A stretch of 29,138 nt of DNA from Planctomycetota bacterium. Its GTDB lineage: Bacteria; Planctomycetota; DG-23; SLPQ01. Location of the stretch: assembly GCA_021160625.1 (NCBI GenBank), contig JAGHCE010000066.1:1-29138 (forward strand), given 5' to 3'. The notes beneath the pieces were generated by a model. That model was not told the origin of the DNA. It saw only the letters and a program-made list of their open reading frames with translations, and did no database searches. The translations under genes were made by a program, and so were the position numbers. Shown in pieces: positions 10,542 through 26,763 of this stretch; the first letter of the stretch is position 1; each line of letters opens with the position of its first letter.

Positions 10542-10611
10542 GGCAACGCCCGCGAGCCCCATAGCAGGAGGTAGGCAAAGCCCGTTCCGCGCGCGGCAAG
10601 CCGCGCCCTAC
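10542..10611 (-). repeat. REP-like mosaic, cluster 1 (partial module A plus GTAG hairpin)
   Basis: Reverse strand reads GTAGGGCGCGGCTTGCCGCGC (identical to 26667-26687) and CCTCCTGCTATGGGGCTCGCGGGCGTTGCC (variant of module A at 18670). Confidence 0.75.
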
Positions 10612-10634
10612 GCGACTGGCAGTGTGCGGGGAAA

Positions 10635-11171
10635 TCAAGTCTCGTCTTCGGACTCGTAGTCGATAAGTGAGAAAACGTCGTAGGCGGAGAATTTCTTTCT
10701 GCCGTCGAGGAAGGAGAGTTCTATTACGAATCCGCAGCCGACTACTTCGCCGCCGAGTTCCTCCACCATATGCGCGCAGGCCTCCATCGTACCGCCTGTT
10801 GCCAGGAGGTCGTCGATGAGCAGCACCTTCTGGCCGGGTTTGACGGCGTCCCAGTGCATAGTCAGCGTGTCCGTGCCGTACTCCAGCTCGTAGCTGTATT
10901 CGACGGTTTTCGCCGGGAGTTTGCCGGGTTTCCTGACAGGGGCAAAGCCGACGTCGAGTTCGAGCGCCACGGCCGTGCCGAAGATAAAGCCCCTGGCCTC
11001 GGCGCCGACGACGAGTTCGGGCTTTTTATCCCTGAAGTGGTCGGCGATCCGTTTTGATGCTTCCCTGAGTGCCGCGGCGTCGGCCAAAAGCGGCGTGATG
11101 TCCCTGAAAACGATGCCTTCCTTGGGAAAGCCGGGTATGCTGCGGATATAGTCCTTGAGATCGAGTGCCAT
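10635..11171 (-). CDS. apt: Adenine phosphoribosyltransferase
   Basis: IRSIPGFPKEGIVFRDIT, EARGFIFG, RKPGKLP, YELEYG and the PRPP-binding LIDDLLATGGT. ATG 11171 has better spacing to AAAGGAG than ATG 11177. Confidence 0.97.
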   Translation of the reverse strand: MALDLKDYIRSIPGFPKEGIVFRDITPLLADAAALREASKRIADHFRDKKPELVVGAEARGFIFGTAVALELDVGFAPVRKPGKLPAKTVEYSYELEYGTDTLTMHWDAVKPGQKVLLIDDLLATGGTMEACAHMVEELGGEVVGCGFVIELSFLDGRKKFSAYDVFSLIDYESEDET

Positions 11172-11264
11172 CGCCATCTCCTTTGCAATACGTTGGGCCG
11201 GTTACCATCGCTCGGCCCGGGCAGACACGCGGGCCTGTCGCTGCGGCACGCGGCGCGGCGGGCC

Positions 11265-12113
11265 TCAGGGCGAGGGCTCGCCGGTCATCGCCTCGTAGAG
11301 TTTCTTCAGGGATTCGTTTTCAATCTGCCTGATGCGCTCGCGGGTGAGGCCTATCTGGTTACCTATTTCCTTCAAGGTCATAGGGGCATCTTCGCCGAGG
11401 CCGTAGCGCAGGCGCAGGACGAGCTGCTCGCGTTCGCTGATGGCGGACATTCCCTTGTGAAGCATCATTTTTGTCTGCTCGTCGAGGACGTAGGTATCGG
11501 GTTCGACGGAGTGGGGGTCTTCTATGAGGTCGGCGACCGTGTGCTCGGAGCCTTCGCCGACGGGGTGATCCATCGAGGTGAAGGTATTGATGGCCCTTTT
11601 TATCGCGAAGATTTTCTTGGGGGAAAGGCTCATAGCGTCGGCGACTTCCTCGATGGTGGGCTCGCGGCCCAGGCTGTCGCCGAGGGCGGCCGAGGTGTAT
11701 TTGAAATGGGTTATCATCTCGACCATATATGCGGGGACGCGGATGGTTTTCACCTTGGAAACGAGCGCCCGCTTTATTGCCTGGCGTATCCACCAGGAGC
11801 CATACGTGGAAAAGCGGGTCCCGGCATCGGGGTTGAACCCCTCGGATGCGCGAATAAGGCCGAGGTTCCCCTCCGCCACCAGGTCCATCAGGCTCAGGCC
11901 GCGGTTGGTGTAGTTTTTCGCGATATTGACCACTAAGCGAAGGTTCGACTTCACCATATGATCCCTTGCCTGGCGGTCGCCCGCCTGGATGCGCCTGCCG
12001 AGGGCCTTTTCTTCGTCGGGAGTCAGAAGGGGTATCTTTTTTATATCCCTCAGGTAGGTTTGAAGGGTATTCTCGCCAGCGATTGCCGCCTCCTTGGGGA
12101 AACCCTCAAACAA
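11265..12113 (-). CDS. RNA polymerase sigma70-family factor, RpoD-like paralog lacking region 1.1
   Basis: LQTYLRDI (region 1.2), NLRLVV and EGNLGL...RFSTYGSWWIRQAI (region 2), TLKEIG...TRERIRQIE (region 4.2). Start uncertain (TTG 12113, or ATC 12083; see findings). Confidence 0.93.
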   Translation of the reverse strand: MFEGFPKEAAIAGENTLQTYLRDIKKIPLLTPDEEKALGRRIQAGDRQARDHMVKSNLRLVVNIAKNYTNRGLSLMDLVAEGNLGLIRASEGFNPDAGTRFSTYGSWWIRQAIKRALVSKVKTIRVPAYMVEMITHFKYTSAALGDSLGREPTIEEVADAMSLSPKKIFAIKRAINTFTSMDHPVGEGSEHTVADLIEDPHSVEPDTYVLDEQTKMMLHKGMSAISEREQLVLRLRYGLGEDAPMTLKEIGNQIGLTRERIRQIENESLKKLYEAMTGEPSP

Positions 12114-12261
12114 CGACCGCCCGGCCCTGCGCGGCGCCGAAGCCTTCCGGCGCCGTATGCCGGGACTTGCAAAACGGGCTCCTCAGTTTTCCCGAACCGA
12201 TTGGCCATACGAAGCGCCCAGTGACACCAATTAGATGATGTCCTGTAACCCGGTGTGCCAC

Positions 12262-12355
12262 GGGGGGTCTCCGACATCTTTCTGCTACGGAGCCTGCAGA
12301 CGTTGTCTGCGGGAATCAATTGACCCTCCGCGGGCGAGGCATGCCTCGCCCCTAC
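12262..12355. repeat. REP-like mosaic, cluster 2 (module A plus GTAG hairpin)
   Basis: GCAGAC-GTT-GTCTGC hairpin, then AATTGACCCTCCG, then GGGCGAGGCATGCCTCGCCCCTAC. Confidence 0.8.
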
Positions 12356-24151: not shown

Positions 24152-24194
24152 ACGTGTTTCGGCCTGGGACTTGTGTTAAGAAAGGCGGCAGCGA

Positions 24195-25400
24195 ATGTCG
24201 GCAGGCGGCTTGCGCGACTTCGACGGGCATTTCGGCCCGTACGGCGGGCGTTACGTGCCCGAAACGCTTATCAACGCCCTCGACGAGCTGGAGGAGGCCT
24301 ACCGCGAGGCTAAGGCGGACCCCTCCTTCGCCGAGGAACTCGACTGGTACCTCGCCAATTACGTCGGGCGACCCAATCCCCTCTATCTCGCGTCCAATAT
24401 GGGCGCAAAGTACGGCGGCATAAGGCTTTACCTCAAGCGCGAGGACCTCAACCACACCGGCGCCCACAAGATAAACAACTGCCTCGGCCAGGGGCTCTTA
24501 GCGCGCCGGATGGGCAAGCGCCGCATCATCGCAGAGACCGGCGCCGGCCAGCACGGCGTCGCCACGGCCACGATGTCGGCGCTCTTCGGCTTCGAGTGCG
24601 AGATATTTATGGGCGAGGAGGATGAACGCCGCCAGGAGTTGAACGTCTTCCGGATGAAGCTCCTGGGCGCGAAGGTCACCTGCATCAAGGCCGGCTCCAG
24701 GACTTTGAAGGACGCCACGAACGCCGCCCTTCGCAACTGGATGGCCACCGTGCGCGACACGCATTACGTCCTCGGCTCCGTCGTCGGCCCGCACCCCTTT
24801 CCCACGATCGTCCGCGACTTCCAGACCGTAATCGGCTGCGAAACCAGGGAGCAGATACTCCGGGCCGAGGGCCGCCTGCCGGAGGTCATCGTAGCCTGCG
24901 TTGGCGGCGGGTCGAACTCCGCCGGGATGTTTTACCCCTTCATCGACGACGACCAGGTCAGGCTCGTCGGCGTGGAGGCTGCCGGCAGGGGCCTGACCCC
25001 AGGCGACCACGCAGCGACTCTCATCAAGGGAAAGCCGGGCGTTCTCCACGGTGCGAAAAGCTACGTCCTCCAGGACGCCGACGGCCAGACGGACAGTGTG
25101 CACAGCGTCTCCGCCGGACTTGACTATCCCGGAGTGGGCCCGGAGCACAGCCGCTGGAAGGACACCGGCCGCGTCGAGTATACCGCAGTGACCGACGTCG
25201 AGGCCCTTGAGGCATTCCAGGAACTTTCGCGCCTTGAGGGCATCATCCCCGCGCTCGAATCGAGCCACGCGGTCGCACAGGTTATGAAAATAGGGCCGAC
25301 ACTCGGGGAGGGAACCCTCGTGGTAATCTGCCTTTCCGGCAGCGGTGCCAAGGACACTATGGAAGTCGCTCGCATCATCGGCGACCGGCCGGAGGAGTAG
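24195..25400 (+). CDS. trpB: Tryptophan synthase beta chain
   Basis: [28 protein letters not shown] (PLP Lys), [28 protein letters not shown] and IPALESSHA motifs. Confidence 0.98.
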
Positions 25401-25410
25401 GAAACGAGAA

Positions 25411-26214
25411 ATGAGCCGAATCGAAGACACCTTCGCAAAACTCGCCGACAGCGGCCAAAAGGCCTTTATGCCCTTCATCACCGCCTGTGACCCGTCAGTC
25501 GAGACTACGGTGGAGATAGTGGTCGCGCTGGAAGCGGCAGGGGCCGACATCGTGGAACTGGGCGTGGCCTACAGCGATCCGCTGGCCGACGGTCCGGTGA
25601 TACAGGATTCCTACCACCGGGTTCTTTCCGCCGGGGGAACGGTTGCGGATTTCTTTCGGACGGTGCGCGAGATCCGCAAGCGCTCGCAAATCCCCATCGC
25701 CGCGATGGTGACGTACACGATTGTCTGGAAGGTCTCCCCGGAAGAATTCGTCGAAAAGGCATCCCAGGCGGGTGTCGACGCGCTTATAGTTCCCGACCTG
25801 CCGCCGGAAGAGGCACAGCGGCTTGTTGAAGCGGCAGGGGAAAAGGGCCTCGGCGTCATCTTCCTGGCGGCGCCTACCACGACTCCCGAGCGCATCAAGA
25901 AGATAGTCGCCGTTTCGGCGCCGTTTATCTACTACGTCAGCGTCGTCGGCACGACCGGCGCGCGCGACGCGCTCCCTCGCGAGCTTGCCGGCGGCGTCGC
26001 CGCGGCCAAGGCCCTTACCGACAAGCCGGTAGTCGTGGGTTTCGGGGTTTCAAGCCCTGAGACCGCCGCCGCAGTGGCGAAAATCGCCGACGGCGTCATA
26101 GTAGGCAGCGCCATCGTGCGCGTAATCACCGAGAACGCCTCGAAATCCCCCAAGGAAATCGCCGCCGCCGTTGCCGACTTCGCCCGCCCCATCGCCGAGG
26201 CAGTCAAGGCATAG
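25411..26214 (+). CDS. trpA: Tryptophan synthase alpha chain
   Basis: ATG 25411 ten nt after the trpB stop. ELGVAYSDPLADGPVIQ, PDLPPEE, YYVSVVGTTG, VGFGVS and DGVIVGSA motifs. Confidence 0.97.
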   Translation: MSRIEDTFAKLADSGQKAFMPFITACDPSVETTVEIVVALEAAGADIVELGVAYSDPLADGPVIQDSYHRVLSAGGTVADFFRTVREIRKRSQIPIAAMVTYTIVWKVSPEEFVEKASQAGVDALIVPDLPPEEAQRLVEAAGEKGLGVIFLAAPTTTPERIKKIVAVSAPFIYYVSVVGTTGARDALPRELAGGVAAAKALTDKPVVVGFGVSSPETAAAVAKIADGVIVGSAIVRVITENASKSPKEIAAAVADFARPIAEAVKA

Positions 26215-26243
26215 GCTTGCCAAAGAGCGTCAACAACAGGGGC

Positions 26244-26763
26244 GACAGGCAGGAATGCCTGTTCTACTTGTGGATGCGGCACCGTAGGCGACAGGCAGGA
26301 ATGCCTGTCCTACCCGGCAAAAAGGGGACAGTATTGCTCTGTTGAAAACAGTGTGCCACTCGTGGCTAATCCACCAGTAGGGGGGTTTCGCCCCCTTCCT
26401 GCTGCTACGGCCACTGGCGTTGCCCGTGGCAGTCCGCTGACTTTCCGCGGGCGCGATGAATCGCGTCCCTACAGAGGCTATGTGGCACTGGTGACTTTGT
26501 AGGATGGGCTTTAGCCCACGAGGTGAATTCTCGCTGTTCATTCCGCGTGCACCAGCCAACAGGTAGGGCGGACATTCTTGTCTGCCGTCGTTATTCCGCG
26601 GGCGCGGCAAGTTGACCCGCCTTGGAGGGCGGCGTCCCTACGATGCTATGTGGCACTGGCGACGCGGTAGGGCGCGGCTTGCCGCGCGCGGGATAAACAA
26701 GGGGCGCGCTTTATCGCACGAGCAAGCGAGGGAATGTTGCTGGGCGCAACGCATTGCGCCCCT
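26244..26763. repeat. REP-like mosaic, cluster 8 (largest and most diverse)
   Basis: GTAG-type hairpins at 26244, 26290, 26449, 26499, 26563, 26624, 26667 and 26742, joined by modules A, B, J and linker K. Confidence 0.9.

Follow-up and report, generated by a model that had tools for sequence, protein, structure and literature searches.

The window considered here, i.e. the whole analysed stretch of 29,138 nt, is the entire contig C133 of a planctomycete metagenome-assembled genome (2.30 Mb, 273 contigs, 61.5% GC, 79.5% completeness), and its sequence occurs in hydrothermal-vent metagenome runs. Its GlnA has a relative of 85% identity for which the source gives the name Planctomycetota. Between its genes lie clusters of short repeats containing GTAG-tagged hairpins of the type known as repetitive extragenic palindromic sequences (REPs), arranged in a manner that resembles bacterial interspersed mosaic elements (BIMEs). 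The genes around these clusters have housekeeping functions, namely ribosomal protein S1, a sigma-70 factor, cmk, glnA, a GFO/IDH/MocA-family oxidoreductase, a PALP-family (pyridoxal-phosphate-dependent) enzyme and a tRNA. An initial annotation, made from the sequence alone, had described eight intergenic clusters of about 1.9 kb in total with about 20 GTAG hairpins. The comparison of the window with its own genome by BLAST delivered 1,924 nt of multi-copy sequence, all of it intergenic, at positions 10512-10617, 12254-12389, 16764-17124, 18658-19027, 20290-20539, 23725-23790, 23992-24086 and 26290-26714; with weak extra matches at 23655-23686 and 26244-26268 this amounts to eight to nine stretches, and positions 1-10500 contain no multi-copy sequence in this comparison. 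The number of about 20 hairpins was reproduced by a module parser, and every hairpin quoted in the annotation was found at its position on one strand or the other. The motif GTAGG occurs 65 times in the window against 32 expected, a count reached by none of 100 shuffled sequences. Single modules of the window attain copy numbers of up to about 270 genome-wide.

Self-comparison of the genome revealed 433 repeat islands, which sum up to 66.9 kb or 2.9% of the assembly. As is typical for REPs, the repeats combine high copy number with intergenic placement: 19 of the 433 islands overlap gene calls, which are themselves crude. Within the islands we detected about 526 GTAG hairpins, imperfect palindromes of 20-40 nt with GTAG at the 5′ foot, and these can be assigned to three architectural classes. 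Class S (146 copies) is characterized by GTAGG, a stem of 6-7 bp and the tail GCGGAATA, and class T (107 copies) by a stem of the type GGACA-TTCT-TGTC and the tail TTTATTCCGCG. Class R (about 240 copies, GTAGGGGC...GCCC) comprises the inner-stem subfamilies R1 (101 copies), R3 (72), R2 (38), R6 (18) and R5 (13). Variants inside each class differ by compensatory double changes. The claim of at least nine different stems that share only the tag therefore needs revision. The variants are present, but they collapse to the three classes, several being compensatory variants within one class, and they have heads (GTAGGG) and tails (CGCGGAA) in common. Some stems carry mismatches: a pyrimidine-pyrimidine mismatch is conserved in 36 of 38 R2 copies, class T shows G.T pairs on the GTAG strand only, and few copies of R1, R3, R5 and S contain non-Watson-Crick pairs.

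Further modules are not simple GTAG hairpins or occur beside them. The commonest module and dominant element is module A (68 nt, e.g. at 18937-19004), for which nhmmer delivered 344 genomic matches, of which 255 are nearly complete in length; it belongs to those that are not simple GTAG hairpins. Module K, a 9-bp hairpin or its left arm alone, is present in about 235 copies, module P in about 60 and module Q in about 37, and a GGGGACAGTAT half-site is rarer. The left arm of K (GCTATGYGGCACTGG...) was found, as previously described, at 16842, 20362, 20479, 26477 and 26645 with a different stem variant after each, although the four stems reported behind it all belong to class S. No Rfam family matched the repeats, either at the gathering threshold or at E up to 1, the tRNA being the sole match.

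In the window these modules are put together differently from cluster to cluster. Cluster 1 (10511-10617, minus strand; defined by coverage, repeat pairs and tokens) consists of a reversed Q, a reversed 5′ fragment of A (10542-10583) and a reversed class S REP (10587-10611). Cluster 2 (12219-12388, plus strand) is a 170-nt block right after the S1 stop codon, composed of a K-like fragment, A (12263-12331), a reversed R1 REP (12332-12355) and a low-copy tail of 33 nt. In cluster 3 (16764-17124, plus strand), A (16770-16837) is followed by K-left (16842-16859), an S REP (16860-16884), a 3′ fragment of A (16890-16912), a reversed R1 (16914-16937), P (16946-16981), a T REP (17009-17032), a GTAGAG palindrome unit (17044-17085) and a reversed P (17088-17123). 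Cluster 4 (18658-19027, plus strand) contains A (18664-18731), a T REP (18749-18772), P (18804-18839), a second T REP (18867-18890), a reversed S (18905-18926), a further A (18937-19004) and a degenerate reversed R1 (19006-19027). Two tandem units of A, K-left and S REP (20293-20405 and 20408-20522) and a stub resembling hairpin 1 of A form cluster 5 (20290-20545, plus strand).

Cluster 6 (23725-23790, minus strand) adjoins the tRNA gene and holds a reversed R3 REP (23758-23781) and, next to this, a weaker hairpin of R6-like type. Cluster 7 (23992-24088, plus strand) is made of A (23999-24066) and a degenerate reversed R1. The tRNA gene itself (23840-23912, minus strand) thus has REP modules near both sides, the reversed R3 at 23758 and A at 23999. 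Cluster 8 (26241-26717, plus strand) is the most extended one. It begins with two GTAGG...CCTAC palindromes, a class T variant (26241-26266, degenerate, and 26284-26313), which are followed by a GGGGACAGTAT half-site (about 26318-26335), a full K hairpin (26351-26378), A (26380-26447), a reversed R3 (26449-26472), K-left with S (26477-26519), T (26563-26586), an expanded-loop unit (26599-26641), again K-left with S (26645-26691) and an R3-like stub.

The variable order seen in the window is a property of the whole genome. The module parsing and adjacency count proposed in the initial annotation were carried out for 385 islands, tokenised into about 15 module types, and resulted in 151 oriented neighbour pairs and 246 distinct architectures. 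Among the 194 islands of three or more modules, 183 have a unique module order. K occurs with 10 types of neighbours, S with 15 and A with 14; the partner behind K-left is its own second arm in 90 copies, a GTAG REP from one of at least six classes in 94, and another module in the rest. As in BIMEs, a limited set of REPs and linkers is thus used in varying combinations, and linker associations are not fixed when the genome as a whole is taken into account. Associations are nevertheless skewed, and the shuffling is constrained to some degree. A reversed R1 stands behind A 62 times, and in this commonest composite the tagged hairpins are in direct orientation, whereas S and T form tail-to-tail inverted doublets 38 times. 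The tail of A is adjoined by 80 of 101 R1 copies, by 1 of 146 S copies and by none of 107 T copies. With the caveat of these preferred pairs, the mix-and-match system suggested for the window is borne out genome-wide by the unique orders, the many partners of K, the independence of blocks within module A and a swap between sister species, the latter two being presented below.

Module A folds as two hairpins and a tail, and the downstream REP forms a third hairpin (z about -4 against shuffled sequences, range -3 to -4.8); for A and its REP in cluster 4, three separate hairpins with z about -4 were obtained. Hairpin 1, which is followed by a T-run, is a (G/A)TAG-tagged hairpin when read on the reverse strand, with position 26 being C in 39% and T in 49% of copies. 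In A with its REP, a central hairpin is therefore enclosed by two tagged hairpins that are directly oriented. The pairing of the stems is maintained by covariation. At pair 6-12 (G-C in 111 copies, T-A in 44), 89% of copies are Watson-Crick paired where 54% would be expected if the positions were independent, and the corresponding values are 97% and 68% for pair 36-46 (G-C 137, A-T 33), 96% and 75% for pair 37-45 (G-C 147, C-G 21), and 95% and 50% for pair 38-44 (A-T 89, G-C 78).

The variable sites of A form three linkage blocks, one each for the two hairpins and the T-run. Inside a block, Cramer's V ranges from 0.3 to 0.97, with the lowest values in the T-run, and from block to block it stays below 0.25. 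The haplotypes of hairpin 1 and hairpin 2 are independent of each other (p = 0.65), and the downstream module is independent of both (hairpin 2, p = 0.64; hairpin 1, p = 0.32). Since the descent of subfamilies from master copies would link the whole unit, hairpin-sized pieces must be exchanged between copies of A. Among full-length, ungapped copies there are no identical pairs, and the mean pairwise identity is 82%. The nearest paralogue of a copy shows 94% identity at the median, in contrast to 81% for orthologous copies, which differ at covarying pairs. That orthologues are less alike than nearest paralogues points to copying or conversion which continued after the species split.

Joints between modules are found at recurrent short motifs. 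In about 35 cases an extra 29-nt hairpin-1 unit stands in tandem, usually with a haplotype unlike that of its neighbour, and here the joint lies in a GGGGG run. In at least 15 chimeras, a common CTAC connects a reversed S REP with positions 23-68 of A, and in a few others an R2/R5 composite is joined to A at the same CTAC point. A terminates at TTCCG in about 135-145 alignments. This motif is the complement of the CGGAA tail following class S and R REPs, and with 7.3 occurrences per kb it is three times as dense in islands as elsewhere (2.4 per kb).

The sister genome GCA_053939145.1 (L022; GlnA 94% identical, coding DNA about 88-90%, same gene order) contains modules A, K, P, Q, R1, R3, R6 and S, and the orthologous spacers could be compared for gain, loss and swap, as had been suggested earlier. 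One presence/absence and one swap were detected. The 170-nt block 12219-12388, which holds A and R1, is lacking in the sister with exact flanks. In the cluster 3 spacer upstream of glnA both genomes share A and K-left, followed by S in our genome and by R3 in the sister, and the right-hand P arm is again common to both. At cluster 4 the sister's spacer holds a different mosaic, and at the place equivalent to cluster 1 it has a class S REP just upstream of its Pribosyltran gene. Composition thus varies between relatives at one locus, as in BIMEs. Two outgroups (L036 and L038; GlnA 85% identical, same synteny) have no intergenic copy of A in their 21-kb loci, the single weak partial match of L038 being located inside a gene; their spacer at the cluster 2 site is short, and the locus of L038 contains a single R-type GTAG hairpin. 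As the outgroup spacers are short and without A, this lineage most likely gained the 170-nt block, and as the outgroups lack A, the mosaic represents an expansion within this genus-level clade. Module A found no DNA match in 30 relatives, both same-family genomes included; three closer sources carry it, among them the sister and a JGI contig (L021). A scan of genome contigs with a pattern for A gave, among the matches listed, four single matches in unrelated genomes, which we take as chance.

Two larger differences from the sister genome were noted. The 6.4-kb segment 20308-26740, with a GH106-like gene, the tRNA, the PALP-family (TrpB-like) gene and the gene after it, has repeat islands (clusters 5 and 8) at both edges. 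It is absent at the otherwise syntenic locus of the sister, where 206 nt comprising K, A, K and R3 separate the flanks, and contigs of run X3 show that the relative carries the genes of this segment elsewhere. The pattern suggests a rearrangement whose breakpoints coincide with repeat islands. Conversely, where the window (10321-10640) contains cluster 1 only, the sister has two extra genes (962-3683), one for a TetR regulator and one metallophosphatase/AP-endonuclease-like, with A, K, Q, R3 and S modules at their flanks. Within the S1 gene of the window (13174-13731), three direct repeats spaced by about 261 nt were observed, which we take to be repeated S1 domains (Pfam: six) and not mobile repeats.

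The explanation which we consider moderately probable is that the clusters are local samples of a genome-wide, lineage-specific mosaic population of BIME type, diversified by cut-and-join of the kind carried out by REP-associated tyrosine transposases (RAYTs) together with conversion. Single-stranded hairpin DNA would be cut and rejoined at the conserved boundaries, i.e. the (G/A)TAG/CTAC tag and the TTCCG/CGGAA tail. Such a process would insert units beside or into existing units and yield chimeras between copies, and gene conversion among hundreds of copies could then reassort hairpin-sized blocks further. As catalyst we infer a Y1 HUH transposase of the RAYT type, comparable to TnpA-REP of E. 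coli as known from in vitro work, whose gene would be located in the unassembled fifth of the genome or would have been lost recently. The inventory, the combinatorial architecture, the independence of blocks, the positions of the joints and the gain, loss and swap between sister species are observed directly, and the enzyme and its single-strand chemistry are deduced. In E. coli, TnpA-REP binds single-stranded REPs by GTAG and a stem mismatch, both of which are needed, and cuts at CT in inverted REPs and linkers; strand transfer then gives new BIME variants and tandem arrays, a step by which the authors proposed to explain how BIMEs became diverse (Ton-Hoang et al. 2012, PMC3333891). The conserved mismatch of R2 and the strand-specific G.T pairs of class T fit this picture, and the position of the chimera joints at CTAC tags and TTCCG tails fits the published model of cutting and rejoining.

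In the initial annotation it was stated that the window encodes no RAYT, and this extends to the whole assembled genome. No RAYT or Y1 gene was detected in the 79.5%-complete assembly by the Pfam model PF01797, by the NCBIfam model NF047646 (REP_Tyr_transpos) or by tblastn with 120 planctomycete Y1 proteins (best E = 0.012). There is likewise no IS110 gene in the assembly and no TnpB above cut-off. Among 30 relatives searched, 24 carry Y1 genes, and those of the same family score best against the RAYT model, with 66 bits (below its cut-off of 80 bits) compared to about 20 bits for IS200. The RAYT-like genes of relatives are flanked by TAGGGAC.GTCCCTA palindromes, some of them with full GTAG/CTAC tags. 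Searches for homologues of a same-family RAYT led to RAYT-like loci in other organisms only, one of which has a K copy. In this case (L046), a reversed K copy together with a '...CCCCTAC' end is situated at a contig end about 100 nt upstream of the RAYT-like gene, and the DNA of the tRNA-synthetase gene (Pfam tRNA-synt_1c) adjoining this locus is 75% identical to that of our genome. Our genome has split copies of the GGGGACAGTAT half-site, and at the syntenic place beside its tRNA-synthetase gene, on contig C118 (3837-3916), such half-sites make up an inverted-repeat element of 80 nt. They are similar to the TAGGGACAGTCCCTA palindromes flanking the RAYT-like genes of relatives, and the element may be a trace of a former RAYT locus. 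We regard these loci, the K copy and the half-sites as leads and not as proof. The RAYT-adjacent hairpin in another relative (G002) was not dispersed in that genome with the pattern tried. In L049, direct repeats of about 90 nt (1230-1440 and 2300-2450) enclose the RAYT-like gene, each with a GTAGGCGCCGGCGC... hairpin, besides the TAGGGAC palindromes.

Several points weigh against a RAYT-driven origin. Apart from the missing gene itself, three REP classes might imply several RAYTs, all of which would then have to lie in the missing 20%. Ten genes with REPs on both sides were scanned and no mobilising gene was among them, all being ordinary metabolic genes or an IS481-type fragment. The palindromes flanking the RAYT-like genes of relatives are not S, T or R hairpins, and the link to L046 consists of one 30-nt copy of K. 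As no two full-length, ungapped copies of A are identical, a very recent burst is not indicated. Junctions at short motifs are also expected from microhomology-driven host recombination, and CT dinucleotides are too common to have diagnostic value.

A less probable explanation is an orphan REP population, in which a RAYT seeded the repeats and was then lost, and in which homologous and microhomology recombination, short-tract conversion and hairpin-induced template switching shuffle them without a dedicated enzyme. The three unsuccessful searches for a RAYT and the divergence of the A copies are in line with this, as are the junctions at the short shared motifs GGGGG, CTAC and TTCCG. Linkage equilibrium over 20-30 nt is expected from frequent short-tract conversion, and the island-bounded 6.4-kb segment, placed differently in the sister, indicates that the repeats act as recombination substrates. 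Recombination among copies, however, does not readily explain the 170-nt block, which stands in a spacer that is empty in the sister and without A in two outgroups, i.e. as an insertion at a naive site. The population is moreover large and structurally intact (95-97% Watson-Crick at covarying pairs), and paralogues are closer than orthologues, which speaks for continued copying. REPINs (doublets of inverted REPs) are moreover reported to be replicated by, and to persist with, a single-copy RAYT.

It is doubtful that the system is of an altogether different kind, in which hairpin cassettes of about 15-30 nt are freely exchanged at the tags without the master-copy logic of REPINs, either RAYT-free (driven by the host or by replication) or by a RAYT that mainly recombines; the direct-oriented A with its REP would then be a new type of composite element. 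We consider it unlikely that the hairpins are selected structural elements, kept as terminators, stabilisers of mRNA 3′ ends or binding sites for nucleoid proteins or gyrase, with the mosaic resulting from selection at gene ends. Hairpin 1 of A with its T-run resembles a terminator, the stem pairing is maintained by compensatory changes, A and its REP fold below shuffled controls, and such roles are documented for E. coli REPs (PMC3733652). Covariation is, on the other hand, equally expected if a transposase reads single-stranded DNA hairpins. According to the crude gene calls, the orientation of A relative to neighbouring genes is unbiased (58/54/54/53) and divergent spacers, where promoters are located, contain islands as often as convergent ones. 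The presence/absence and the swap at orthologous spacers, the close outgroups which manage without these elements and the lack of Rfam matches also disagree with a selected function. Taken with the presence/absence difference between the sister species, the missing orientation bias speaks against oriented termination as their primary role, although they may have incidental effects, and the elements behave as selfish or neutral DNA rather than as oriented regulatory parts. Because of this missing bias, module A was rejected as a terminator in the sense of a main explanation, and K (TGGCAC...) was rejected by eye as a sigma-54 promoter, as a -12 element is absent. That the clusters are chimeric joins of repeat-bearing reads which exist as such in no single genome, as might be feared from source samples of about 5x depth and from Logan contigs that break inside clusters and hence provide no direct spanning evidence, is highly improbable. 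A separately assembled ENA scaffold (L024) matches 15073-18917, and with it the whole of cluster 3, at 99.9% identity. In two runs, Logan contigs (records 4, 5, 8 and 14) extend across the border between unique flanks and outer modules. The module families recur at orthologous loci of the JGI contig and of the sister genome, which comes from another study, and just 38 of 546 contig ends touch a repeat island.

The preferred reading, a BIME-type mosaic shaped by RAYT-like cut-and-join and conversion, places the repeats close to known systems. The background given in the initial annotation, one or a few consensus sequences per family, was too narrow, as BIMEs are by definition mosaics of REPs and linkers and several REP classes per genome have been described (PMC3333891, PMC3733652, PMC2817692). 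In E. coli, BIMEs were defined as mosaics of REP types and linkers (PMC3333891). There as here, GTAG-tagged imperfect palindromes with several stem types keep their complementarity, some REPs contain a stem mismatch, the REPs are clustered with a limited number of linker motifs, and copy number and linkers at the same locus vary between strains (Ton-Hoang et al. 2012, PMC3333891). The junctions in our genome, located at the CTAC of inverted REPs and at linkers, fit the model of cutting at CT and strand transfer. Compared to E. coli, our genome belongs to a planctomycete host and has no assembled RAYT, more stem classes and far more architectures (183 of 194 unique), and its commonest composite, A with reversed R1, is direct and not alternating, around a third, central hairpin.

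In Stenotrophomonas and Pseudomonas, several GTAG REP families per genome and BIMEs with lettered inter-REP modules have been reported (Nunvar et al. 2010, PMC2817692; Di Nocera et al. 2013, PMC3733652), and each class there maps to its own flanking RAYT, the so-called REPtron (PMC2817692, PMC3733652). GTAG repeats were also reported in the Planctomycetes-Verrucomicrobia-Chlamydiae superphylum, Planctomycetes included, with hundreds of composites of a degenerate GTAG unit and an unrelated stem-loop (Di Nocera et al. 2013, PMC3733652). Module A likewise joins a GTAG unit to an unrelated stem-loop. REPINs (Bertels and Rainey 2011, PMC3116915) are short, non-autonomous and vertically inherited elements with hundreds of copies, as are the elements found here, and the 38 tail-to-tail doublets of S and T resemble a REP doublet. 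In REPINs, two like REPs are inverted and replicate as one unit from master sequences, whereas the doublet partners here have unlike stems, most composites are direct and sub-parts reassort without linked subfamilies. The repeats can therefore not be counted as REPINs, as the stems of S and T differ and the sub-parts of A are in linkage equilibrium. They are not miniature inverted-repeat transposable elements, since A has no terminal inverted repeats and one clean insertion site shows no target duplication, nor palindrome-associated transposable elements derived from IS200/IS605, as the assembly is without a Y1 TnpA and without TnpB above cut-off.

Insertion sequences of the IS110 family are known to target REPs (PMC1525189; ISPpu9, PMC12288879). 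A similar placement was observed in the JGI contig L021, which is 84% identical to, and orthologous with, the locus on contig C18 of our genome and carries K and A there. Its IS110-family transposase gene (203-1290; DEDD_Tnp_IS110 and Transposase_20) abuts the CCCTAC end of a REP, which fits the habit of IS110 elements of inserting into REPs, and the orthologous locus on contig C18 (8871-9104) contains an intact R3 REP instead. IS110 is here a passenger of the REP landscape and not its source.

Taken together, we regard these repeats as a real, dynamic and lineage-specific mosaic of the BIME kind, an unusually diversified example of REPs and BIMEs rather than a new kind of system. Its less familiar features are the direct-oriented composite of three hairpins, the near-total uniqueness of architectures, the block-wise linkage equilibrium and the fact that no RAYT gene has been found so far. 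To our knowledge, block-wise linkage equilibrium inside the repeat unit has not been reported for GTAG REPs or BIMEs of several classes.

The spread and diversification of REPs and BIMEs are known mainly from in vitro work on one E. coli enzyme and from population data of Pseudomonas. The genome described here is a natural case of far-advanced diversification, in which outgroups and a sister species allow gains, losses and swaps to be polarised. Should a complete genome contain a single RAYT for all three REP classes, or none, this would bear directly on whether RAYTs read structure and tag rather than stem sequence, and on whether REP populations can persist without their enzyme. From a practical point of view, the repeats mark rearrangement breakpoints and targets for IS110-family insertions in a little-studied lineage of vent planctomycetes.

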